Shown here: one piece after another, positions 2,303 to 62,173 of the stretch
Position numbering within the stretch: the stretch's first letter is position 1
Layout of the letters: every line of letters starts with the position of its first letter
Origin: an uncultured Bdellovibrionales bacterium
GTDB taxonomy: Bacteria > Patescibacteriota > Minisyncoccia > Moranbacterales > UBA1568
Direction of reading: 5' to 3'
Assembly (NCBI GenBank): GCA_964612055.1
Contig: CAZTBI010000002.1
Location: forward strand, 80,296-144,295
Length of the DNA stretch: 64,000 bases
Made by a program: the position numbers and the translations under genes
Notes under the pieces: model-generated
The model's database searches: none
What the model saw: the letters and a program-made list of their open reading frames with translations, nothing else
Told to the model about the DNA's origin: nothing

Positions 2303-3697
2303 TTATTTGTTGATATCAATGAGAAATTTTCTCAAATGTTTTCTTCCTATGATGACAGGATATGTAAGGTGCCCACGGTCAATGCAAGAAACTTTAGCAG
2401 GCATTGTAACAGAATCAATAGTAAGCGTGACGAGAATCACTGGACGATAAGAATGTCCGTGAGACGATTTGACAGAGAAGGTATCTGCAAGATCCGGAAT
2501 ATCTTTAAAAAGTTTTTCACGTTCTTCCTTGGAGAGTTCGTTCACTATATCACGGCCAGCTATTTTTTCTTCGAATGTCTTAAGAACATCTTCAAATCCG
2601 AGCTCCTTTGCTAATGTAATATCGATAGAGGTGGAGTCGGCCCCGGTGTCGATTTTGGCCTCGACTTCAATTTCTTTGCCATCCTTTCCAATTAGCTTTA
2701 CTTTTTCAACGCCTCCAATAACGCGTTTACCAGAAAGCTCCTCGATTTCCTCCTCGATTTCTCCGCCGAAAAGATTTTGTCCCACGCGCATGCCACGTTC
2801 CGTTGACTTGATTTTCAGTCCAGCTACTCGCTTGAGGCGGCTTTTCAGCCCGGCCAAGTTAGCGAGCTGGATGGAGAGTCCTGGCCGAGCGTTGAGCTCC
2901 AAGATAACCGGTCCACGATCGCGGTCGATAGCAATATCGGCGCCAAGAAATCCCAGACCTGAAAGCGTCTGTGCTTCGACGGACATGCGTAAAATTTCTT
3001 TCCAATAGGGGATCTTGATACCAGAGAGCACCAGTCGTGTATCAGGGACATATTCGATCAAGTGACCCTTGCCGATGATGGCAGTCGTAGTAGTACCGGT
3101 AGCAAGGTCGATACCGACACCGATGGCTCCTTGCTGGAGATTAGCTTTGCCATCAGAGGCCTTGGTCGGTAGGCGGAGCATAGCCATGACAGGCACATGA
3201 TTGAAAACGATAACACGGATATCGGGAATACCTTTGTAGCTGTACGGTTTAAAAAGTTTCAAGAGTGTGAGGCGTTCTTCGAAAAAGGCGATATCCGGTG
3301 TGTTGGCCAAAGAAAACGAGCCATCAAGAATGTTTCTAATATGTGATTTCAGGTCTTCGACAGTAATGATAGAGCCATTGGCTTTGACCCAGGCGTCCTC
3401 ACGACCCTTCTTTTTGGCGTAGACAACGATGATGCCCTCACCGCCAAAACCACGGTTTGGTTTCAAGGCAAAACTACTAGGGAGTGAATTCCAATCAAAC
3501 TGCTCGAGCTCCTCATGGGTCTTTATCTTCGCAATGAGGGCTGAGACACCGAGGTTGTTTTTTTTCAGGAGACGTTTGCAGAGCAGCTTGTTGTCAGCGA
3601 TCTCCATCCCGCGCTTGCGGTTATTCGGTCGGATGTACTCCAAATTCCGGGCATTCATGCCGAGGAGCAACCCACTTTTTTTGAGGAAATCGAACAT
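2303..3697 (-). CDS. alpha-L-glutamate-ligase-like ATP-grasp protein fused to a C-terminal retropepsin-like (RimB/PF05618-like) domain
   Basis: 464 aa. N-terminus MNARNLEYIRP...KPNRGFGGEGIIV is a TIGR02291-like ATP-grasp. C-terminal about 110 aa contains IDTGADSTSI, the D-T-G-A aspartic protease motif. Confidence 0.7.
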   Translation of the reverse strand: MFDFLKKSGLLLGMNARNLEYIRPNNRKRGMEIADNKLLCKRLLKKNNLGVSALIAKIKTHEELEQFDWNSLPSSFALKPNRGFGGEGIIVVYAKKKGREDAWVKANGSIITVEDLKSHIRNILDGSFSLANTPDIAFFEERLTLLKLFKPYSYKGIPDIRVIVFNHVPVMAMLRLPTKASDGKANLQQGAIGVGIDLATGTTTTAIIGKGHLIEYVPDTRLVLSGIKIPYWKEILRMSVEAQTLSGLGFLGADIAIDRDRGPVILELNARPGLSIQLANLAGLKSRLKRVAGLKIKSTERGMRVGQNLFGGEIEEEIEELSGKRVIGGVEKVKLIGKDGKEIEVEAKIDTGADSTSIDITLAKELGFEDVLKTFEEKIAGRDIVNELSKEEREKLFKDIPDLADTFSVKSSHGHSYRPVILVTLTIDSVTMPAKVSCIDRGHLTYPVIIGRKHLRKFLIDINK

Positions 3698-7812: not shown

Positions 7813-7841
7813 TTGACAAAGATTCAAAGACATGCTATTAT
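7813..7841 (+). promoter_or_regulatory. sigma70-type promoter for the candidate sRNA (TTGACA-N17-TATTAT)
   Basis: -35 TTGACA at 7813-7818, 17-nt spacer, -10 TATTAT at 7836-7841. Confidence 0.55.
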
Positions 7842-18002: not shown

Positions 18003-18620
18003 ATGGAAGAAGTTATAAAGAAATTTGGAAAACTATATAGGACTACTCCCGAAACCCTCAAAATGGGCATTCATTACGCGCTCGGAAAAGAAGCGGCAAA
18101 AAGATTTGCTGGCAAGCAAAAAATCGCTGATGTGTGTACGGGGGCTGGTTTTATGGCGGTCTGTTTAGCGGAAGTAGTAAAAGAAATTACTGTTGTAGAT
18201 ATAGATCAGTCGCACTTACAGCTAGCAAAAGAAAATTCGAAAATAGCAGGCTATGATAATAAATTTAGATTTATAGAGGGCGATATAATGGACGATAAGA
18301 TTTTAAATCAACTCGTTGGCGTAGAAGCAATCTATTCAGACCCTGAGTGGGTGTTACCAGGTCACTGGAAGGGAGACCACGTAAGCAGTATCTTTGAAAT
18401 GAGTCCTCCTATCGACAAATTATTCAACCAGTTAGAAAAAATCACAAAGAATATTGCTATACGACTCCCTAAAGAAACAGAAATAAAACAACTTGAGAGC
18501 TTTCCTGCTCATGAAGTAGAAATGGCTTATCTTGACGGGAAACCTAAAGCATACACTGTCTACTTTGGGGATTTGATTAGAAAAGAGGGCATAACAAAGC
18601 TCGAGGTAGAAACTACGTAA
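18003..18620 (+). CDS. Class I SAM-dependent methyltransferase (RNA cap-guanine-N2/Trm-like small MTase)
   Basis: Motif I DVCTGAGFMAVCLA and acidic motif II VVDID. Visibly lower GC than flanking genes. Confidence 0.6.
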   Translation: MEEVIKKFGKLYRTTPETLKMGIHYALGKEAAKRFAGKQKIADVCTGAGFMAVCLAEVVKEITVVDIDQSHLQLAKENSKIAGYDNKFRFIEGDIMDDKILNQLVGVEAIYSDPEWVLPGHWKGDHVSSIFEMSPPIDKLFNQLEKITKNIAIRLPKETEIKQLESFPAHEVEMAYLDGKPKAYTVYFGDLIRKEGITKLEVETT

Positions 18621-21974: not shown

Positions 21975-22406
21975 TTACGCAAAGAGTCCAACCGCGTACC
22001 ACTGGGGTTCCTGCAGATCGTCCCAGGAGAGTTTTTGATTGGTCGGGATGTCTCCTTTAGTCCAGCCACCAAAGTCAGGGTGTCCGGTTCCCTGGTCGTT
22101 TGGGTCCTTGTACTCATAGACCCAAACGAACATCTGGTCCCCTTGCTTTTTGGTTGCTCGAAGCCATTGAGTACGGACTCCTGTTCCGCATGTATAGCGA
22201 ACGGGATGTAGCCGGTACAACTTGACGTTGTCTACGTTCCAAACCGGCGGCAGTTCATCGGGAGTGGTAGTCGAGTCAGTGATGAGGCGCCACACGTACC
22301 CGCGCTCTGGCCAGAAACCGATGATCAGTGTTGCCGCGAGTATGCACCAGGTGATCCAGTCGATACTTGAAACAATATGAAATGCTGTCTCCATGATGTC
22401 CTCCAA
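21975..22406 (-). CDS. Hypothetical membrane-anchored protein (GC-rich orphan)
   Basis: 143 aa with an N-terminal TM helix. Higher GC than surroundings. Preceded by promoter module P3. Confidence 0.45.
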   Translation of the reverse strand: MEDIMETAFHIVSSIDWITWCILAATLIIGFWPERGYVWRLITDSTTTPDELPPVWNVDNVKLYRLHPVRYTCGTGVRTQWLRATKKQGDQMFVWVYEYKDPNDQGTGHPDFGGWTKGDIPTNQKLSWDDLQEPQWYAVGLFA

Positions 22407-22466
22407 AAGAGGGGTTGTGGGGCGGGGTCGGTGAAAACGAAAACAGTTGTAAAACTACGATTTATA

Positions 22467-22495
22467 ATTATACACCTAAAGGTGTGAAATGTCAA
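22467..22495 (-). promoter_or_regulatory. Promoter module P3 (TTGACA-N9-TTTAGGTG-TATAAT)
   Basis: Minus strand: -35 TTGACA (22490-22495), 17-nt spacer ending TTTAGGTG, -10 TATAAT (22467-22472). Confidence 0.55.
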
Positions 22496-22512
22496 CCTCA
22501 GAAAGGATCTTC

Positions 22513-22977
22513 TTACAACTGAGGAATGGAGAGCTCGGGAGAGAAAATTCGAATGAGGAGGAGGGTGAGGAAGAGACCGACGAAAGCGCCGCCGATCACT
22601 TCACTGATGCGGTGCCCGACACGTTCTTTCAAACGAGGAAACTGTTCTTTAGGGATCTTCAATTGTTCTACGAGCATGTTCAAGTAGCGCCCCTGATCGC
22701 CTAGGTACATACGGATACGAGCGGCGTCATCGATCACGATGAAGGCGAGGACGGCCGAGAGAGCAAAAGCACCGGAATGGATGCCCTCGTAGTAGGCGAC
22801 GCTGGTCAAGAGTGAAACCACGAGACTGGTGTGGGCACTCGGCATGTGGCCGTGGGTGAAAGCGTACTCAATGTTGAAACCGTGTTTGTACGTGTAGAGA
22901 GCAAATTTGATGACCTGAGTCAGGACACCGACGGTAATCGGAATGAGAAACACCAGATAAGATTGAAGCGCTTCCAT
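22513..22977 (-). CDS. Divergent PAP2-family (acid phosphatase/vanadium haloperoxidase-related, DUF212/YuiD-like) membrane protein
   Basis: 154 aa, 4 TM helices, motif HGHMPSAHTS. Confidence 0.7.
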   Translation of the reverse strand: MEALQSYLVFLIPITVGVLTQVIKFALYTYKHGFNIEYAFTHGHMPSAHTSLVVSLLTSVAYYEGIHSGAFALSAVLAFIVIDDAARIRMYLGDQGRYLNMLVEQLKIPKEQFPRLKERVGHRISEVIGGAFVGLFLTLLLIRIFSPELSIPQL

Positions 22978-23116
22978 AGGATTGGCTTATAATTTAGAAA
23001 AAGGCTTTTTCTTACCGAAAGTATAGCACATATTTGCAGGAAATCTGAGATTTTGGCGAGTTGCAAAATCCCCCAGATTTGCTACCGTAAAGAGGTAAAC
23101 CTTTGAATACAAAGCT

Positions 23117-23668
23117 ATGAGTGTGCCGCTGATCCTTTTAGTGGTTGTTGGAATTGCCGTGTTGTATGTAGTAGCAGTCTACAATGGTCTAGTACGTTTG
23201 CGGAATCGTGTGAGTGAAGCCTGGAGCGATATTGATGTCCAGCTCAAGCGTCGGTATGATCTCATTCCGAATTTGGTGAGTACGGTAAAGGGGTATGCGG
23301 CTCACGAAAGTGGAGTGTTCCAAAAAGTGACCGAGGCTCGCGCCAACGCGATGCAGGCTGGATCGACCCAGGCCAAGGCGCAGGCCGAGAATATGCTGTC
23401 GGAAACCTTGAAGAGTCTGTTTGCGGTAGCTGAAGCCTATCCAGATCTCAAGGCGAATCAGAATTTCTTGGAATTGCAGCGTGAACTTTCTGACACGGAG
23501 AACAAGATTCAGGCCTCACGTCGTTTCTACAACGGTAATGTCCTGGAACTGAACAACAAGATCGATATGTTCCCGTCAAACATCATTGCCGGCGCCTTCA
23601 ACTTTGGGAAGAAGGAATTCTTCGAAGTCGCTGAGGCGGAAAAAGAACCGGTCAAAGTGCAGTTCTAG
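23117..23668 (+). CDS. lemA: LemA family protein
   Basis: N-terminal TM helix then [27 protein letters not shown], the LemA signature. Confidence 0.9.
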
Positions 23669-23749
23669 TCCCTGTACCGAAGGTCAAAAAACTGCTATAC
23701 TCGTGGCGCGTCCAAGACAATCGGTCGCGCCACTTTATTTCTCAAAACT

Positions 23750-24643
23750 ATGGCAACGCTCTACGCGGAACATGATAAAAATATTCGCCTGACGTGGGTG
23801 TACATCACGCTTTTTCTGGTACTGGTTATCGGTGTGGGGTATGTGTTTGCTGGCGCTTATGGTGACAGTACCATTCTCTATGTAGCGGTGGCGTTTTCAG
23901 TGCTCATGAGCGTCGCGTCGTACTGGTGGAGCGACAAGATTGTGCTTTCCATGAGCAATGCCCACGAACTGTCGTTTGCAGAAAACAAAGAGATCTACCG
24001 CTTGGTAGAAAACCTCTGTATTACTGCCGGACTGCCGCTGCCGAAAATTTACATCATCGACGATAGCGCCTTAAATGCTTTTGCTACCGGCCGTGATCCA
24101 AAGCACGGTGTCATCGCTCTCACTACTGGCATCATTTCCCATTTGGAGAAATCAGAACTCGAGGGCGTGATTGCTCACGAACTCTCTCATATTGGCAATC
24201 GTGACACGCTCGTTTCGACGGTGGTGGTGATCTTGGTTGGTTTCATTGCGCTTCTCGCTGATTGGTTTCGCCACTTTGCTTTTTTTGGTGGCCGCGATCG
24301 TGATGAGCGAGGTGGTCAGGCGCAGGCTATTTTCATGATTCTTGGTATTATCCTTTCGATTCTGGCACCACTGGCCGCACTCCTTATGCAACTCGCTATC
24401 TCTCGGAAGCGCGAGTCGCTGGCCGACGCCTCGGGAGCGCTTCTCACGCGTTACCCCGAAGGACTGGCCCGAGCACTCGAAAAGATTTCACAGGACAAAG
24501 AGCCGCTTGAGGTCGCCAATCGCGCCACCGCACCGCTCTATATTGCCAATCCCTTCAAGGCAAAAAAACTGAGCAAACTGTTTATGACCCATCCGCCAAT
24601 CGAAGAACGCATAGCAGCGCTTCGTGGCATGGAGGTGAAGTAA
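23750..24643 (+). CDS. htpX: Zinc metalloprotease HtpX (M48)
   Basis: HELSH zinc-binding motif, 4 TM helices, C-terminal MTHPPIEERI. Confidence 0.9.
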   Translation: MATLYAEHDKNIRLTWVYITLFLVLVIGVGYVFAGAYGDSTILYVAVAFSVLMSVASYWWSDKIVLSMSNAHELSFAENKEIYRLVENLCITAGLPLPKIYIIDDSALNAFATGRDPKHGVIALTTGIISHLEKSELEGVIAHELSHIGNRDTLVSTVVVILVGFIALLADWFRHFAFFGGRDRDERGGQAQAIFMILGIILSILAPLAALLMQLAISRKRESLADASGALLTRYPEGLARALEKISQDKEPLEVANRATAPLYIANPFKAKKLSKLFMTHPPIEERIAALRGMEVK

Positions 24644-24647
24644 TGCT

Positions 24648-25088
24648 ATGCCCTCTCCGTACCAAGAATTTGTCCGCAAAGCGAAAGAACGCTACGAGGA
24701 GAATAAGAAAAAAAAGCTGCTGCCAAAAGGAGGGATCGAGTTTACGTCGCATGCTCGCTACAAGATGACGCAGTATGGTCTGTCTGAACAGAAGGTGAAA
24801 GGGATTATCAGAAATCCTAAACGGACCGAGAAAGGCATCGCTCCGAAGACCGCAGCCATGATGCAGCCGGTGTCTTCCAAGATGATCGATGGTAAAGAAA
24901 TTTGGAAACAAGAAATTTGGGTCATGTTTGTAAAGAAGAAAGCGAAGATCGGGATGGGGAGTATCGGAGGGGAACAGCTGCGCATCATCAGCGCCTGGCG
25001 GTATCCAGGAGTCAGTCCGAAGCGCAGCCCGATTCCAGAGGAGATTTGGCAGGAGCTTGAGAGTGGGGGTATAATGGAAGCAGAGTAA
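24648..25088 (+). CDS. Hypothetical basic protein
   Basis: 146 aa. Preferred over the low-complexity antisense ORF at 24582-25181. Confidence 0.35.
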   Translation: MPSPYQEFVRKAKERYEENKKKKLLPKGGIEFTSHARYKMTQYGLSEQKVKGIIRNPKRTEKGIAPKTAAMMQPVSSKMIDGKEIWKQEIWVMFVKKKAKIGMGSIGGEQLRIISAWRYPGVSPKRSPIPEEIWQELESGGIMEAE

Positions 25089-25105
25089 ACAAGTAATAAA
25101 AATGT

Positions 25106-25621
25106 ATGGAACAGACAGGTAATACGCAGAATTCGGGAGAGCCATCTGCCCCAGTGGCAGCGTCGACGGAGGGGGGATCAAAGACGGGTTCTGATATGAA
25201 GGGTTTACTCAAGCAGCTAGAAGCTTTCCTCGATGATTGCATGATCAAAAAAGCTCCGTTTCAGATTCCGATGAATGGCAAGGAAATTTTGGTAAAGATT
25301 ACTCCGTACTTGGTGATCCTCGGTATCCTCATGGCTGTTCCAGCTACTCTGCTTGCGCTTATCGTTTCTCCGGTCGCCTTTTTTACTGGGAGTGGATTAT
25401 ATGTAGTGGGAATGTTGTTTGCCCTCGCCGCACTCGTGCTCGAAGCCATCGCCTTGCCGGGTTTGTTCAAGCGAACGCACTCTTCTTGGAATATGCTGTT
25501 CTACGCTTCGGTGGTCAGTGTCATCGGTAACCTGGTGAGTCTGAATCTTGTCGGCGCTGTCATCGGCGCTGTCATCGGTTGGTACATCTTGTTTCAGATC
25601 AAGGAGCTTTACAAGAACTAG
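25106..25621 (+). CDS. Hypothetical integral membrane protein
   Basis: 171 aa with a disordered N-terminus and 3-4 TM helices. Followed by a terminator. Confidence 0.5.
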   Translation: MEQTGNTQNSGEPSAPVAASTEGGSKTGSDMKGLLKQLEAFLDDCMIKKAPFQIPMNGKEILVKITPYLVILGILMAVPATLLALIVSPVAFFTGSGLYVVGMLFALAALVLEAIALPGLFKRTHSSWNMLFYASVVSVIGNLVSLNLVGAVIGAVIGWYILFQIKELYKN

Positions 25622-25640
25622 GGTCCTTCTTAAGAGCCAG

Positions 25641-25670
25641 AAAAACGAGGTTGAAAAGCCTCGTTTTTTG
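25641..25670 (+). terminator. Intrinsic terminator
   Basis: AAAACGAGG-TTGAAAAG-CCTCGTTTT hairpin followed by T6. Confidence 0.65.
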
Positions 25671-25828
25671 TTTTCAAAATGGTTAATTATGCTTTATACA
25701 AGCCAAATATAGGAACAATAATCTTGACCCCGTTAGAGTAATGTCTAAACCTTGCTTTATCTCAGAGAAAGTATCAAGCAAGAAACTGAATAAAGACCTT
25801 ATGTAAGCCATGAAACACTCTAACGGGG

Positions 25829-25857
25829 TTGACAAAAGAGTGTTTTAGGTGTATTAT
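25829..25857 (+). promoter_or_regulatory. Promoter module P1 (TTGACA-N9-TTTAGGTG-TATTAT)
   Basis: -35 at 25829-25834 and -10 at 25852-25857. Abuts one arm of a 12-bp inverted repeat. Confidence 0.55.
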
Positions 25858-25942
25858 GTACTGTTGCAGGTTTGAATAAAACTCTGTGGCACCATTCATA
25901 GTCCGGACTCCGCTGAGTCTATTTCCAACCAGGAGAAAAACC

Positions 25943-26278
25943 ATGAGCCTTGCTCGCGTCACCCGCATTTTCGTCTTATTTGCCATTTTCTTGTGGCTCT
26001 TTTCGCTCCTCGGCTGTGCCGTGGTCAGCGAGACGCGGACCGTCAAGAACCCAGACGGCTCGACCACCACGACCGACTCCAAGCGTGTCGAGTACCGCCC
26101 CAGCTACTCCTATGCCTACGTCGCACCGGTCGTTCCTTACGGCGTGTATGTTCCGCCGGTGTACGTGGCGCCGCAGTATCACTCCGGCCAATGGGCATTG
26201 CCCATCTGGACGAACGGTGTCCCGGTGTGCCGAGGTGGACGAGCCCGACTGATCAATCGTCGGTGCTACTTCTACTGA
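25943..26278 (+). CDS. Hypothetical lipoprotein (GC-rich orphan)
   Basis: Start chosen at MSLARV: SD AGGAG sits 7 nt upstream. Lipobox LLGC. Tyr/Pro/Val-rich mature part. Confidence 0.5.
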   Translation: MSLARVTRIFVLFAIFLWLFSLLGCAVVSETRTVKNPDGSTTTTDSKRVEYRPSYSYAYVAPVVPYGVYVPPVYVAPQYHSGQWALPIWTNGVPVCRGGRARLINRRCYFY

Positions 26279-26412
26279 AGGGCTCACGGCTTCCATCGAA
26301 CGGCCTACTTTGCAATCTTGCGAAGTAGGCCGTTTCACTTTTTTATACGCAGTACCTGAACAAATCCCTTCTTTTCATATATACTGAGGATATATCAAAA
26401 CAAAAACTCTTT

Positions 26413-27840
26413 ATGAAACAAACGAAAATTGTCGCGACTGTTGGTCCAGCTTCAGAATCTAAAGAGATGTTGCGGGCTATGGTACAGGCAGGGATGAATG
26501 TGGTGCGTCTGAATTTTTCTCATGGCGAACATGCTTGGCACCGAGAAATTATCAATCGGGTACGCGAGCTTTCTCATGAACTAGAGGTCCCGATTGGTAT
26601 CTTGGCTGATATGCAGGGACCACGTATTCGAACCGGCGTTGCCGCGGAGCTTCCAGTAAAAGCCGGTGATACGGTACGAGTGAGTGATGTTTCCAAAATA
26701 GAAACGTTGCATGAGATGAAAGAAGCGGTGGTCGTACTCGATATGCCCGGTATTACTTCTGGTCTTCAAACTGGCCACGCTATTTTGATCGAAGATGGAC
26801 TGATTGAGCTGACAGTCACGAAAGTAGAGAAAGGTTTCGTCGAAGCCGAGGCGAAGAACGATGGTATCATCAAAAATCGCAAAGGGGTTATCCTGCCGGA
26901 TTCTGTTTTGAAACTAGCGATTCTCTCAGAAAAAGATTTAAAAGATCTCCATTTTGTCTTGGAAGAAGGCGTGGATTTCGTGGGGCTGTCATTTGTCGGA
27001 TCAGTGGAAGATATAGAGAGTGTCCGGCAAGAGATGAAGAGAATGGTTGGAGAAAAAACGCGCCTGCCACAGATTGTCGCCAAGATCGAACGCAAAGAGG
27101 CGATCAAGAATTTGGCTGCCATCATCAAGGCTACTGATGCTGTGATGGTAGCGCGTGGCGATCTCGGTATTGAAATGCCAGAAAGTGAAATTGCGATTCT
27201 CCAAAAACAGATTATCGCGGAGAGTCTAAGGGGAGCGAAACCAGTGATTGTGGCAACCCAAATGATGAAGTCGATGACCGAGAACCCGCGTCCGACCAGG
27301 GCTGAAGTCAGCGACGTTTCCAATGCGGTCATTGATCATGCTGATGCAGTGATGCTTTCGGAAGAGTCAGCTATGGGAAAGTATCCGGTTGAGACGATTG
27401 CCATGATGGCGGAAATTATTGAGAAAACAGAAGAGTCACCATTTGATGATCTCTACCAGACGCTTGATCTTAATTTCAAGAATGAGTACGCGGTCATGAT
27501 TCGGAGTGTCTATGAACTGGCCAAGAGTTTTCATACCAAAGCCATTGTTCTTCTTTCGATGAGTGGTTTCACGGCGCGCCTGCTCTCACACTTCCGTCCG
27601 GACAGTCGAATTCTCGTCGCAACCAATAGTCGGCAAACCTGGAATGAACTCTCGCTCGTGTGGGGGATTGATCCCTACCTCTTTGAAGGCGATCAGAATC
27701 TCGATCGTTTTGCTGATCGGGTGATGAAAGAAGCGAAGAAAGATGGCAAGCTCGCGAGCGGTGATCAAGTCGTTGCTTTTCATGGTCGTACCCCAGATCA
27801 AGAGACCTTGAAGCTTGTCGGAATCCGGGAAGTCCGCTAG
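26413..27840 (+). CDS. pyk: Pyruvate kinase
   Basis: MKQTKIVATVGPAS N-terminus and MVARGDLGIE active-site region. Confidence 0.95.
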   Translation: MKQTKIVATVGPASESKEMLRAMVQAGMNVVRLNFSHGEHAWHREIINRVRELSHELEVPIGILADMQGPRIRTGVAAELPVKAGDTVRVSDVSKIETLHEMKEAVVVLDMPGITSGLQTGHAILIEDGLIELTVTKVEKGFVEAEAKNDGIIKNRKGVILPDSVLKLAILSEKDLKDLHFVLEEGVDFVGLSFVGSVEDIESVRQEMKRMVGEKTRLPQIVAKIERKEAIKNLAAIIKATDAVMVARGDLGIEMPESEIAILQKQIIAESLRGAKPVIVATQMMKSMTENPRPTRAEVSDVSNAVIDHADAVMLSEESAMGKYPVETIAMMAEIIEKTEESPFDDLYQTLDLNFKNEYAVMIRSVYELAKSFHTKAIVLLSMSGFTARLLSHFRPDSRILVATNSRQTWNELSLVWGIDPYLFEGDQNLDRFADRVMKEAKKDGKLASGDQVVAFHGRTPDQETLKLVGIREVR

Positions 27841-27933
27841 ACTATCCCTTGCTCTCAGAGAGAGCATTTGGTGAGGTGGCCCCAGCCCGAGGCTGGTCCG
27901 CCTTGGGCGGAGAGCGTTAATCGTACTTAAAGC

Positions 27934-28018
27934 GGAAAGGTGGCCGAGTGGCTGAAGGTACTCGCTTGGAAAGCGAGCAACTCGCAAGGGTTCGCGGGTT
28001 CGAATCCCGCCCTTTCCG
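27934..28018 (+). tRNA. tRNA-Ser (anticodon GGA)
   Basis: Acceptor GGAAAGG/CCTTTCC, D-arm GCCGAGTGG, anticodon loop TTGGAAA, long variable arm, T-loop GGTTCGAATCC. No encoded CCA. Confidence 0.85.
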
Positions 28019-28065
28019 CTTTGAGTAGGAAATATAAAGTGTTCGAATCCCTCCTCTTCCGCCAA

Positions 28066-28098
28066 AGAAAAAATGACGTCCTCGTGGCGTCATTTTTG
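28066..28098 (+). terminator. Intrinsic terminator after the tRNA
   Basis: ATGACG-TCCTCGTGG-CGTCAT hairpin followed by T5. Confidence 0.6.
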
Positions 28099-28107
28099 TT
28101 TTACTAC

Positions 28108-28136
28108 TTGACTTTTCTTTGATTTAGGTGTATAAA
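28108..28136 (+). promoter_or_regulatory. Promoter module P2 (TTGACT-N9-TTTAGGTG-TATAAA)
   Basis: -35 at 28108-28113 and -10 at 28131-28136. Confidence 0.55.
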
Positions 28137-28282
28137 ACTACTTCGAGGGGTTGTTTAAAAATATATGGTTTTGCCGTGGTTCCCTGATATTTTCCCTTGT
28201 AAAAGGCTTGATTGCAGGGAACTGTGGCAAAACTCATCCGAGAATTGCTTGAACAGTTCTTTCGGTAGACAGGAGGCGTTTC

Positions 28283-28822
28283 ATGGACAAGTCGACTTTG
28301 GGTGGTATTTCCGGCGGGATCTATCAGGTCATGCCGGTCACCATTGGCGGGGTAGCGAAGAGCGAGTTCCCGGCCTGGGTGCGCTCAGTGTGCGAGCTGA
28401 GCTCTTGCGCTGAGCAGGTGATGAGGAGTTCGCAGTTTGGCGTCCTGCCGAAACGGCAAGAGCGGATGCAGATCCTGCTCTCGGCCCGGCAATTGGGCTG
28501 GATCAGGAATCCGACGCTTACGGAGCTTTTCAGTACGGAGTTCCTCAAGCAGTGGAGTCTGGCCAATCTGGCTGGTCACGACATCAGTCTGAATTCGGCC
28601 GAGGTCGGGCCGCATCTGGCCATCCAGTACCAGGATCAGCCGGTGGTGGGCAGGGTGGCCATTGCCATGGACCCGATCGTCTGGTCCACGCTCAAGTACC
28701 CAGCACTCTTCCTTCTTGAGCGGACGAGCGAGACGACCTTGATGCTCATGGCCGATTGGCTCGATCACGAAGACGATATCCCGCTCGATCTCCCCTTCGC
28801 GTTTTGGCTCAAGTTGCGCTAA
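28283..28822 (+). CDS. Hypothetical protein (GC-rich orphan, about 60% GC)
   Basis: 179 aa. Strong SD AGGAGG 7 nt upstream. Terminator downstream. Confidence 0.5.
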   Translation: MDKSTLGGISGGIYQVMPVTIGGVAKSEFPAWVRSVCELSSCAEQVMRSSQFGVLPKRQERMQILLSARQLGWIRNPTLTELFSTEFLKQWSLANLAGHDISLNSAEVGPHLAIQYQDQPVVGRVAIAMDPIVWSTLKYPALFLLERTSETTLMLMADWLDHEDDIPLDLPFAFWLKLR

Positions 28823-28838: not shown

Positions 28839-28876
28839 CCCGTGCTGGTTCGTAAACCGGCACGGGCTTTTTTTAT
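28839..28876 (+). terminator. Intrinsic terminator
   Basis: CCCGTGCTGG-TTCGTAAA-CCGGCACGGG hairpin followed by T8. Confidence 0.7.
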
Positions 28877-60796: not shown

Positions 60797-62173
60797 ATGT
60801 TTTTAATCAGTATGCCTATGGCATCGAAGAAAATGAAGAAACCCATGAAAAAAGCGAAAAAGCCGGCCAAAAAAGCCGTGAAGAAAGCGGTCCACAAGAA
60901 GGCTGTTTCCAAGAAGAAGCCTGTGAAAAAGGTGGTGAAAAAGCCGGCCAAAAAATCTCCTCTTAAGAACAAGAAGAAAGTGGCCAAGAAATCACCTAAA
61001 AAGACAGCTCACAAAAAGGTTGCTCCGAAGAAAAAGGCGGTAAATAAGAAAGATCAAACAGAGGCTAAGAAGAATGCTTTTGACGAGCTTTTGTTTCGTG
61101 GCAAGCAGCGTGGTTTTGTGACAGAAGATGAAATCATTCACATCTTGCCTGATGTCGAGCAGGATTTGGAGAATCTCGAGAATTTGTATGAGCGTCTTGA
61201 AACGTCCGGGATCCGCGTTGTCGGGTCAGAAGAAATGCTCAAGCTTGAGACCGATAAAGTGGCCGAAAATTTTGGTAAGAAAAAAACAACAAAAGCCACC
61301 AAGCCCAAAGATAAGGTTATGGAGATGGGCGATGAAGGGGATGGTACTTCGGACCTGGTACAGATGTACCTGAAAGAAATTGGTCGTGTCGCGCTCCTTA
61401 CCGGTGAAGAAGAAATGCGCTTGGCTCGTTTGATTGAGAAGGGCGATTTGAATGCCAAGCAGCGTCTGACCGAGGCCAACCTACGTCTCGTGGTATCCAT
61501 TGCCAAGAAGTATGTCGGCCGCTCGCATAACCTTTCCTTACTCGATCTTATTCAGGAGGGAAATATTGGACTGTTTCGTGCCGTGGAGAAATTCGACTAC
61601 CGCAAGGGGTTCAAGTTCTCGACCTATGCTACCTGGTGGATTCGCCAAGCGATTACCCGTGCTTTGGCTGATCAGTCACGCACTATTCGTATTCCGGTCC
61701 ACATGGTAGAAACGATCAACAAGTACGCTCAGGTGACTCGTCGTTTGGTGCAGGAGCTGGGTCGCGAGCCATTGGCCGAAGAGATTGCTGCTGAAATGAA
61801 TATGGAAGTGGAAAAGATTCGTCACATCCAAAAAATTTCTCAGGAAACAGTGTCGCTTGAAACTTCTGTTGGAGATAACGAAGACGACAGCGTGCTCGGT
61901 GACTTTATCGAGGATACTGAGACCGTGATGCCAAACCAAGCTGCGTCACGCAAACTGCTGCGCTCTCATATTGCTGATATCTTGAGTGAACTGACGCCTC
62001 GTGAGCAGAAGATTTTGCGCATCCGCTTTGGACTGGAGGATGGCGTGACTCATACCCTCGAAGAAGTAGGGCAAGAATTTGGTGTCACTCGCGAGCGTAT
62101 CCGTCAGATCGAAGCCAAGGCGTTGGAAAAGATTCGCGAACACGAGCACTTGAAGAAATTGAAAGACTACTAG
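60797..62173 (+). CDS. rpoD: RNA polymerase sigma-70 factor RpoD with lysine-rich N-terminal extension
   Basis: Regions 1.2 to 4 are present ([44 protein letters not shown]). The N-terminal roughly 100 aa are a KKA/KKP-rich low-complexity tail. Start codon uncertain. Confidence 0.9.

Follow-up and report, generated by a model that had tools for sequence, protein, structure and literature searches.

An invariant promoter block, possibly an offset extended −10 element, in front of small, fast-evolving genes of Moranbacteria

What is the significance of an identical 11-mer, TTTAGGTGTAT, that recurs inside three strong promoters in front of three unrelated genes? The question is raised by a 64,000-nucleotide stretch of bacterial DNA (the window), in which the original prediction had pointed to three promoters of identical geometry sharing this sequence, and had attributed it to a dedicated regulator, to an extended −10 or TG-like element, or to a mobile promoter cassette capturing foreign genes. 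Both the sharing and the geometry hold: exact copies of the 11-mer are located at 22470–22480 (minus strand), 25844–25854 (plus) and 28123–28133 (plus), and in all three it comprises the last eight bases of a 17-bp spacer (TTTAGGTG, hereafter the block) and the first three bases of the −10 in a promoter of the form TTGAC(A/T)-N17-TATAAT-like. No further copy exists in the window, even with one mismatch allowed, and no further site was found in the 10 kb leftward of it, on the dnaA side.

22467–22495, minus strand: site 1 promoter; −35 TTGACA (22495–22490), spacer TTTCACACC + TTTAGGTG, −10 TATAAT (22472–22467)
25829–25857, plus strand: site 2 promoter; −35 TTGACA, spacer AAAGAGTGT + TTTAGGTG, −10 TATTAT
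28108–28136, plus strand: site 3 promoter; −35 TTGACT, spacer TTTCTTTGA + TTTAGGTG, −10 TATAAA

All three −35 hexamers are at or near TTGACA, and a −10 of the form TAnnnT follows 17 bp later at sites 1 and 2; TATAAA at site 3 lacks the final T, as it does in all orthologs of this site, and with no T at −7 is below optimum. A Shine-Dalgarno (SD) sequence and an ORF lie within 72–146 nt downstream of each promoter. The TG of the block occupies −14/−13 and abuts the hexamer (GGTG directly followed by TATAAT), so that the canonical TG at −15/−14 is missing. As had been noticed for two of them, other consensus-like promoters of the window (at 7813, 14758 on the minus strand, 32279 and 44391) lack the block; they carry the canonical TG at −15/−14, with TGC or TGT preceding the hexamer. 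Because the other strong promoters of the same genome place TG in this way, the three sites constitute a distinct promoter class.

Comparison with relatives indicates that the block is under constraint. The site 1 promoter is conserved in L007, L228 and L009 (TTGACTTTTCTTATATTTAGGTGTATAAT), and that of site 3 in L001–L005, L226 and L009 (TTGACAAAATATCTATTTAGGTGTATAAA), with the variant TTTCAGGTGCATAAT in L012. In the slot orthologous to site 2, between hyp146/hyp171 and pyruvate kinase, L017, L020 and L021 keep TTTTAGGTGTATAAT exactly, and variants are present in L009 (TTTAGGTATATAAT) and L012 (TTTAAGAGTATAGT). The block stays fixed where other spacer bases vary, at site 1 in L009, at site 3 in L009 and L226, and at site 2 in L017, L020 and L021. 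Pyruvate kinase is 68–78% identical in the last three genomes, a distance at which the −10 region of its own promoter has changed; 14 nt are invariant across lineages with only 68% identical pyruvate kinase, and the slot 2 ORFs of different genera have no detectable homology to one another. Judged from these comparisons, orthologous promoters keep the block unchanged where the other spacer bases, and even the ORF behind the promoter, have changed.

The natural abundance of block variants in viral contigs, counted as matches and clusters, served as a form of "natural mutagenesis".

TTTAGGTG: 94 matches, 46 clusters
TTTACCTG: 58 matches, 30 clusters
TTTAGTGG, canonical: 56 matches, 31 clusters
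TTTAGGAG, T of the TG changed to A: 18 matches, 11 clusters
TTTGAGGT: 16 matches, 5 clusters
GTTGTAGT: 4 matches, 2 clusters
TTTAGGTC, G of the TG changed to C: 3 matches, 3 clusters

Composition-matched permutations of the block gave 2 and 5 clusters, and changes in the TG next to the hexamer reduce abundance from 46 clusters to 11 or 3, which suggests that what matters in the block is the T-run together with the TG abutting the −10.

We consider it somewhat better than an even chance (probability of roughly 0.55) that the block is an offset, extended −10-like element read by the ordinary sigma-A holoenzyme, and that the three sites represent a single, conserved type of promoter. Of the original suggestions, that of an extended −10 or TG-like element is the one that gains support, from the fixed register relative to the −10, the lack of a second half-site and the fall in viral abundance with changes in the TG. 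A dyad or tandem partner was sought in the spacers, where AGGTGT/ACACCT occurs at chance level (4 found against 1.9 expected, and 2 against 3.0); the palindrome ACACC-TTTA-GGTGT is present at site 1 and absent from the other two sites. Each site would be a full-consensus promoter of the sigma-70 family (−35 TTGACA/T, 17-bp spacer, TATAAT-like −10) with the last eight spacer bases fixed, in which the T-run and TG would provide an extended −10-like contact, one base off the canonical TGn register, for region 3.0 of sigma-A. RpoD, the product of the sole sigma gene in the window, has a canonical region 3.0. We infer that the block is contacted by RNA polymerase itself and that expression of the three genes is high; the predicted outcome is a maximal-strength and probably constitutive promoter. 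This reading does not account for the AGG of the block.

Extended −10 (TGn) promoters of sigma-70 and the TRTG motif that is reportedly found in the "−16 region" of Gram-positive promoters (Voskuil & Chambliss 1998; Mitchell et al. 2003) share with the block a short element with TG just upstream of the −10, a preceding T-rich tract and a fixed register; a dependence of natural abundance on the TG, for which the viral counts are indirect evidence, would fit the same comparison. The differences are that here the TG at −14/−13 abuts the hexamer, instead of lying at −15/−14 with one spacer base, that an extra AGG is conserved in Patescibacteria and that the element is combined with a perfect −35, unlike classical extended −10 promoters, which often lack one. 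In SP6-type phages, the RNA polymerase promoter is ATTTAGGTGACACTATAG, with which the block has 8–9 nt, (A)TTTAGGTG, in common; however, the initiation core CACTATAG is absent and the block is embedded in a perfect −35/−10 bacterial promoter, and the resemblance (ATTTAGGTG) is regarded as coincidental.

Each promoter heads a stand-alone unit consisting of a structured leader, a small ORF and a terminator.

22395–22466, minus strand: g1 leader, 72 nt
21975–22394, minus strand: g1, orphan 139-aa ORF with an N-terminal TM helix and SD GGAGGA
25858–25942, plus strand: g2 leader with two hairpins, at about 25866–25890 and (GGACTC-N4-GAGTC) about 25906–25921
25943–26278, plus strand: g2, 111-aa lipoprotein precursor with lipobox LLGC, Pro/Tyr/Val-rich, two C-terminal Cys; GC 0.60
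26298–26335, plus strand: g2 intrinsic terminator, 17-pair stem and T-run, conserved in L007 and L009
27934–28018: tRNA-Ser upstream of site 3, accompanied by tRNA-end remnants
28168–28233, plus strand: g3 leader hairpin, GTTTTGCCGTGGTTCCCTG...CAGGGAACTGTGGCAAAAC
28283–28822, plus strand: g3, 179-aa cytoplasmic protein with a conserved AEVGPHLAIQ motif; GC3 0.78
28839–28866, plus strand: g3 intrinsic terminator

The start of g1 is most likely the ATG at 22394, behind GGAGGA, rather than the TTG at 22406. That the three genes are hypothetical and mutually unrelated was borne out: the proteins have no similarity to each other, none belongs to a Pfam family at its cut-off, and sequence searches against Pfam and PDB returned nothing above threshold. 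Only two homologs of g1 were found among 5.8 billion proteins; its ortholog in L009 is 29% identical, with flanks approximately 80% identical at the DNA level. The g2 coding sequence is 48–81% identical to that of L228, with promoter, leader and flanks at 99–100%. The coding parts of g1 and g2 are hypervariable behind a constant promoter. Among the window, L009, L012 and L017, compared by eye and unscored, both stems of the g2 leader are retained through changed bases. In the g3 leader, an ACAGTTC located downstream could serve as an alternative pairing partner of GAACTGT, and the stem base TTGCC...CTGTGGCAA is retained even in 33–42% identical homologs without the promoter motif; as these base pairs are invariant, they offer no proof of covariation. 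Rfam has no match to the leaders in the window and 19 loci (only tRNA, rRNA and LOOT matched), and the sole above-threshold match in the window is the tRNA at 27934–28018. In the sigma-A model, these would be autonomous monocistronic units whose lineage-restricted, fast-evolving products are predicted to be membrane-anchored (g1), a lipoprotein (g2) and cytoplasmic with a lectin-like fold (g3); purifying selection would keep the promoter in fixed chromosomal slots, and the cargo ORF behind it would diverge or be exchanged.

The promoter would, moreover, be characteristic of Patescibacteria, especially Moranbacteria. A genome scan yielded at least 120 matches to the 29-nt pattern, which is strongly over-represented in Patescibacteria MAGs. 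Among the matches listed, 39 records belong to CPR groups, Moranbacteria accounting for at least 12, and a further 10 are "Bdellovibrionales" bins that are mislabelled; one of these, L021, shares synteny with the window, and two others, L036 and L068, look like Moranbacteria loci. The window is itself Moranbacteria. In CPR-rich DNA sampled regardless of the motif (734 kb), TG lies at −14/−13 in two of 53 strong promoter-like sites, both AGGTG, and the canonical TG in 16 of the 53. The motif is not in front of ordinary housekeeping genes, as would have told against the original prediction, in Patescibacteria, where 40 of 43 CPR downstream ORFs are Pfam-less, many have a signal peptide or TM segment and none encodes an rRNA, r-protein or tRNA; it is in front of such genes in Clostridia, where the identical pattern precedes rpoB, recA, rpsL, infC, typA and tRNA genes. 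Normal sigma-A can therefore use this sequence. The pattern is also enriched in phages of unrelated hosts.

These distributions bear on the strongest alternative, which we regard as possible but considerably less probable, namely that TTTAGGTG is recognised by a Patescibacteria-wide factor that co-ordinates the expression of small, hypervariable, largely envelope-targeted orphans. The factor could be a sigma-A paralogue or group-2-like sigma with an altered preference at −16 to −13, or a monomeric repressor or activator. Such a regulon would agree with the discreteness of the class from canonical TGn promoters in the same genomes, with the invariance of the 14 nt, with the near absence of the promoter before recognisable housekeeping genes in CPR, with the different promoter class that serves 16S rRNA in a relative (TTGACA-N14-TGCTATACT), and with the perfect-consensus core elements, which typify repressor-held promoters. 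In E. coli, bases at −13/−14 discriminate sigma-S from sigma-70, and by analogy those just upstream of the −10 could define a subclass read by a close sigma paralogue; here, however, phyla that have an ordinary sigma-A use the same sequence. The use of the sequence by clostridial housekeeping genes and its enrichment in phages argue against a dedicated factor, as do the lack of a dyad or tandem half-site and the zero-offset register to the −10, which is what a polymerase contact predicts. The sole sigma gene of the window is canonical, and no regulator candidate is conserved beside the units; an HxlR gene near g3 pairs divergently with FMN reductase. For a DNA pull-down directed at the block, the target sequence is TTTAGGTGTATAAT. 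In its most elaborate form, which is slightly more doubtful still, TTTAGGTG-TATAAT would define a Patescibacteria-wide regulon under a sigma paralogue or small accessory protein, with fixed "expression slots" of constant promoter and leader and fast-turnover cargo; taken jointly and just as tentatively, that cargo would be small secreted, lipoprotein or lectin-like proteins with a protected GC3-rich composition.

Far less probable are moron-like mobile cassettes, in which foreign, GC-richer units were inserted repeatedly or a mobile promoter captured genes. The claim that the genes are GC-richer than their neighbours stands for g2 (GC 0.60, GC3 0.75, z = 4.2) and g3 (GC 0.59, GC3 0.78, z = 4.7), both more than 4 SD off in GC3, and is only marginal for g1 (GC 0.53, GC3 0.60, z = 1.7; the neighbouring DUF212 gene has GC3 0.65). 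Phage "morons" are likewise monocistronic units of deviant GC that carry a strong promoter and a terminator of their own and encode small proteins of unknown function, and cassettes would also suit the position of site 3 downstream of tRNA-Ser with its tRNA-end remnants, the unrelated ORFs of slot 2 and the small mobile hairpin elements that adjoin sites 1 and 2. The units, however, are chromosomal and their position is identical in all relatives examined, with synteny down to 53% protein identity and no prophage context. High GC3 is retained in every ortholog over this divergence, a span at which one would expect amelioration; it is equal to the genome-wide GC3 of the GC-richer relative L012, and in g3 it is constant (0.78–0.82) across genomes with background GC3 from 0.49 to about 0.75. 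On synteny and GC3 constancy, recent horizontal acquisition was rejected, and the genes are, on this evidence, vertically inherited. No integrase or transposase was found near the three units and no repeats flank them; since the 180-nt flanks, aligned with MAFFT, are similar only within the 29-nt promoter, there is no shared mobile module. In view of synteny, of promoters at empty sites without any mobile element and of GC3 retention, the idea of a promoter cassette capturing foreign genes is not supported, and synteny already largely refutes it. Codon adaptation as a simple cause of the high GC3 can also be set aside: codon use in g2 and g3 reflects a general rise in G3 and C3 that includes the rare CGG and AGG, and because this differs from the bias of rpsT and rpoD, high expression does not simply explain it. 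The high GC3 more plausibly reflects selection or repair acting on highly expressed genes than a foreign origin.

That the sharing arose by chance, or by a recent local duplication of a single promoter, is very improbable and is refuted by the comparative data: the three sites do lie within 6 kb, and triplication of the 11-mer is by itself insignificant because 149 other canonical 11-mers occur at least three times in the window, but the case rests on the same register inside three −35/−10 pairs and on conservation in orthologs, the block is over-represented in the clade, and the adjacent nine spacer bases are unrelated, which argues against recent duplication.

To our knowledge, almost nothing is known of transcription signals in the mostly uncultured candidate phyla radiation. 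The 14-nt signature, which is conserved throughout this group, is a selective mark of genes that are small, evolve fast, lack a Pfam match and are mostly envelope-directed, and would be a sequence handle for what are probably the most highly expressed lineage-specific proteins, candidate host-interaction factors. If the block is an ordinary polymerase contact, it represents a modest refinement of promoter grammar; if it defines a regulon, it would amount to a conserved platform from which these episymbionts express proteins for host interaction or surface variation. A literature search found neither the motif nor promoter classes of Patescibacteria described, the only match being an incidental one, to a Thermotoga pilin promoter (AAGGTGTATAAT).

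A separate observation concerns the hairpin elements, which are MITE-like and inserted exactly at the −35 TTGAC. The one abutting site 2 lies outside the promoter proper:

25724–25833, plus strand: MITE-like hairpin, TTGAC-CCCGTTAGAGT...ACTCTAACGGG-GTTGAC(A)

Its 13-nt arms are 100% complementary, and the empty counterpart, ...ctcTTGACAaaag, is present in L009, L012 and L017. Because promoters exist at empty sites, these elements did not bring them. Generally, such elements have terminal inverted repeats of 12–18 nt, direct TTGAC flanks, no coding capacity, and filled and empty sites in close relatives; metagenomes contain at least 104 unique sites, 88 with a partner arm, of which 73 are preceded by TTGAC. 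Since they insert into −35 hexamers and regenerate them, these hairpin elements may merit attention in their own right.

The 64-kb window contains exactly three copies of the 11-mer TTTAGGTGTAT (22470-22480, minus strand; 25844-25854 and 28123-28133, plus strand) and no further ones at one mismatch; at 3/3 sites it comprises the final 8 spacer bases (the spacer being 17 bp) together with the initial 3 of the -10 hexamer, which bears out the original prediction of an identical 11-mer in identical geometry at three promoters. The nine -35-proximal spacer bases are unrelated among the sites, and beyond the 29-mer the flanking sequences fail to align.

Promoters and the genes behind them (window coordinates)
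22467-22495, minus strand, site 1 promoter: TTGACA-TTTCACACC-TTTAGGTG-TATAAT
25829-25857, plus strand, site 2 promoter: TTGACA-AAAGAGTGT-TTTAGGTG-TATTAT
28108-28136, plus strand, site 3 promoter: TTGACT-TTTCTTTGA-TTTAGGTG-TATAAA
21975-22394, minus strand, g1: N-terminal TM helix, start moved to the ATG behind GGAGGA
25943-26278, plus strand, g2: lipoprotein precursor, lipobox LLGC
28283-28822, plus strand, g3: cytoplasmic protein

A three-copy 11-mer is unremarkable in itself, because 149 canonical 11-mers are present at least three times in the window; its recurrence in the same register in three promoter pairs, taken together with the comparative data, is beyond chance. The consensus-like promoters at 7813, 14758 (minus strand), 32279 and 44391 have TG at -15/-14 (..TGC or TGT, then the hexamer) and form a class separate from sites 1-3, here termed class ii, in which TG abuts the -10; as had been stated, the remaining consensus promoters lack the motif, those at 7813 and 44391 carrying the canonical TG instead. 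The next 10 kb beyond the window's left edge contain no class-ii site.

Behind each of the three promoters come a 72-146-nt leader, a good Shine-Dalgarno sequence and a single small ORF, with a strong intrinsic terminator after g2 and after g3. The genes are hypothetical and mutually unrelated, as first described: none has a Pfam family above cut-off, the three proteins share no similarity, and their homologs form only 2 (g1), 6 (g2) and 11 (g3) clusters among 5.8 billion proteins, making them extremely narrow families. The claim that all three are GC-richer stands for g2 (GC3 0.75) and g3 (0.78), strong outliers from the 57 other ORFs of the window (0.494 +/- 0.061), and only marginally for g1, which at 0.60 is no outlier. 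The composition of g2 and g3 appears to be a maintained, ancestral-like state, because GC3 is constant in orthologs and because of the pattern of codon usage. Orthologs of g3 have a GC3 of 0.78-0.82 against backgrounds of ~0.49 (window), ~0.58 (the related contig L009) and ~0.75 (the related contig L012); given this constancy, and since neither g2 nor g3 is an outlier at all in L012, recent import was rejected as the source. Simple translational selection was rejected as well, since G3 and C3 are both raised and A3 lowered, the rise including CGG and AGG, codons that rpsT and rpoD avoid.

Comparison of related loci suggests that purifying selection acts on the promoter block and not on its cargo. 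Site 1 reads TTGACTTTTCTTATATTTAGGTGTATAAT in L009; at site 3, TTTAGGTGTATAAA is kept in L009 and L226 next to a changed proximal spacer, and the L012 sequence is TTTCAGGTGCATAAT. The site-2 slot drifts to TTTAGGTATATAAT in L009 and TTTAAGAGTATAGT in L012 and holds TTTTAGGTGTATAAT in all three of the MAG contigs L017, L020 and L021, where the rest of the spacers differs and pyruvate kinase shares no more than 68-78% identity with the window's, a distance at which the -10 region of the kinase's own promoter has changed. Slot 2 invariably holds an ORF for a small exported protein, GC-richer than the genome around it (111, 82, 207 and 132 aa), with no homology detectable between genera. L228 and the window have 94% DNA identity, rising to 100% over the promoter and leader of g2 and falling to 48-81% over its coding region. 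The coding region stands out as a sharply bounded island of divergence (25944-26340 in the window, 5001-5400 in L228), which would reflect either allele replacement or a lipoprotein under diversifying selection. The g1 protein (21975-22394) is 29% identical to its counterpart in L009 (2877-3311), against ~80% for the flanking DNA, and the g1 slot is non-coding in L017 and occupied by an amidase-like ORF in L020.

An exact pattern scan for TTGAC-N10-TTTAGGTGTATWAW, with one genome per species, gave at least 120 matches. Among the matches listed, at least 39 record titles name groups of Patescibacteria (the candidate phyla radiation, CPR), at least 12 of them Moranbacteria, and at least 10 more come from TPA bins under a Bdellovibrionales label, among them L021, which is syntenic with the window, and L036 and L068, which look like Moranbacteria loci; Clostridia make up most of the remainder. 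As Patescibacteria account for only a few percent of the species, and for fewer still of the bases, in such collections, the pattern is strongly enriched in this group. At 40 of 43 Patescibacteria loci no Pfam family matches the first ORF after the motif; this first ORF often encodes a TM or signal-peptide protein and is usually GC-richer than the locus. The 44 Clostridia loci matched 84 Pfam families, including RpoB, RecA, S12, IF-3, TypA/BipA, RNase J and ArgG, and some Clostridia matches stand before tRNA genes. Placement before housekeeping genes, which the original prediction would have counted against itself, is thus almost absent at the Patescibacteria loci and present in Clostridia. 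A 734-kb set of CPR-rich metagenome DNA that had been gathered for a different purpose contained 53 strong promoter-like sites, 16 with the canonical TG and only 2 with TG at -14/-13, both of them AGGTG. The density of AGGTG-type promoters is roughly one per few hundred kb, so that the three promoters in 6 kb of the window are a local cluster. The searchable literature yielded no prior description of the motif or of Patescibacteria promoter classes.

Two further arrangements were seen. In the Paceibacterota locus L039 (5080-7760), three promoters of the class-ii type whose spacers are almost identical (TTGACTTTGRTGTRG...) lie within 2.6 kb directly after a tRNA, each before a small membrane ORF, as a tandem array of units. 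In two Patescibacteria MAGs (L018 7744-7820, and L100), a conserved non-coding stretch of ~70 nt (tctttgacaattgatttg.gaat..aagccgtagctttaag.gtgtaaaat), for which Rfam has no match, directly follows class-ii promoters and may encode a small RNA.

A viral-contig collection was used as natural mutagenesis at constant composition.

Variants of the block in viral contigs (matches/de-replicated clusters)
TTTAGGTG, the block itself: 94/46
TTTACCTG, GG to CC: 58/30
TTTAGTGG, canonical register: 56/31
TTTAGGAG, T-14 to A: 18/11
TTTAGGTC, G-13 to C: 3/3
TTTGAGGT, permutation: 16/5
GTTGTAGT, permutation: 4/2

Judging from these counts, natural promoters appear to favour a T-run with TG abutting the hexamer as much as the canonical TGn, and AGG contributes little in phages. 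The block has no second half-site, always stands at zero offset to the -10 and, in the Clostridia, also precedes housekeeping genes. The RpoD of the window (60797-62173) has the canonical region-3.0 residues, those that read TG. The most economical reading, to which we assign a probability of roughly 0.55, is that the ordinary holoenzyme would make an offset extended -10-like contact with the block, giving very strong promoters. The extended -10 or TG-like element proposed at the outset thereby survives in part: a TG abutting the -10 is favoured in the viral contigs, but out of the canonical register. Class-ii promoters may likewise be compared to extended -10 or Gram-positive -16-region promoters, although their TG lies at -14/-13 and not at the defining -15/-14. 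That a sigma paralogue or accessory factor dedicated to these promoters reads the block is less likely; it stays a live rival because polymerase contact does not account for the near-restriction of the offset TG in Patescibacteria to AGGTG, for the avoidance of housekeeping genes there by class-ii promoters, or for the GC3-rich cargo. As for the housekeeping genes, the 16S promoter of L036 reads TTGACA-N14-TGCTATACT.

The other proposal, a small mobile promoter cassette capturing foreign genes, is contradicted by the same gene order in relatives and by the GC3 kept in orthologs. The order murE, g1 (minus strand), DUF212 (minus strand), LemA, HtpX, hyp146, hyp171, g2, pyruvate kinase, tRNA-Ser, g3, HxlR (minus strand), FMN reductase, pirin, MscL is found in the related contigs L007, L228, L009, L012 and L226, and its central part in L017, L020 and L021, MAG contigs identified by title or by their features as Candidatus Moraniibacteriota. 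From this shared order, the source of the window is a Moranbacteria-like member of the Patescibacteria. The g1-g3 units resemble phage morons in autonomy and deviant composition but differ from them in mobility.

The -35 TTGAC of strong promoters is the exact insertion point of hairpin MITE-like elements with terminal inverted repeats (TIRs), and the direct TTGAC flanking them regenerates the -35 hexamer.

Hairpin elements
Window 25724-25833, before site 2: TIR CCCCGTTAGAGT; absent in L009, L012 and L017
L007 5851-6012 and L009 about 3400-3560, a different element, before site 1: TIR CCCCGCACCTTTT; absent in the window and L228
L036 4768-4899, a third element, before the 16S rRNA promoter: ends as in the L007/L009 element (CCCCGCACCTTTT)

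Filled and empty sites vary among close relatives, and since empty sites already carry class-ii promoters, the elements were rejected as their source. The end of the L007/L009/L036-type element together with the -35, AAAAGGTGCGGGGTTGACA, occurs at no fewer than 104 unique sites in metagenomes. Among the matches listed, the partner arm lies 3-282 nt upstream at 88 of 104 unique sites, preceded by TTGAC at 73 of these 88, and a -10-like hexamer follows after 16-18 nt at 82 of 104. A resemblance of the class-ii promoter block to the SP6 promoter (8-9 nt identity) was judged coincidental.

Elsewhere in the window, an AT-rich (GC 0.39) methyltransferase gene of 205 aa at 18003-18620, between holA and rpsT, is probably a recent insertion, as it is missing at that position in L007. 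The genes dnaN-dnaA-rnpA-yidC lie ~5-10 kb from the window (left edge / L230), which probably places it beside the replication origin.

The tRNA-Ser region (27860-28065) is a mosaic, in which an intact tRNA-Ser is inserted between 5' and 3' remnants of an ancestral one.

Parts of the mosaic
5' part, ggtgaggtggcc: fragment of the ancestral tRNA-Ser(GGA), intact in L009 and L012
Middle: ~50 nt, then a complete tRNA-Ser of a different type (27934-28018), flanked by 11 additional complementary bases
3' part, gttcgaatccctcctcttccgcca: 3' fragment

More tRNA-end remnants are found in L012 (3820-3960), and several metagenome contigs break at ~28035. The leader of g3 contains a long hairpin (28168-28233), for which Rfam has no match and whose pairs are invariant, without covariation. 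Its base, TTGCCryrG...CTGTGGCAA, is conserved in all g3 homologs, including those of only 33-42% identity that occupy unrelated loci (L223, L224). Immediately 5' of the Shine-Dalgarno sequence, GAACTGT/ACAGTTC could pair instead, which suggests that this leader may act as a switch.
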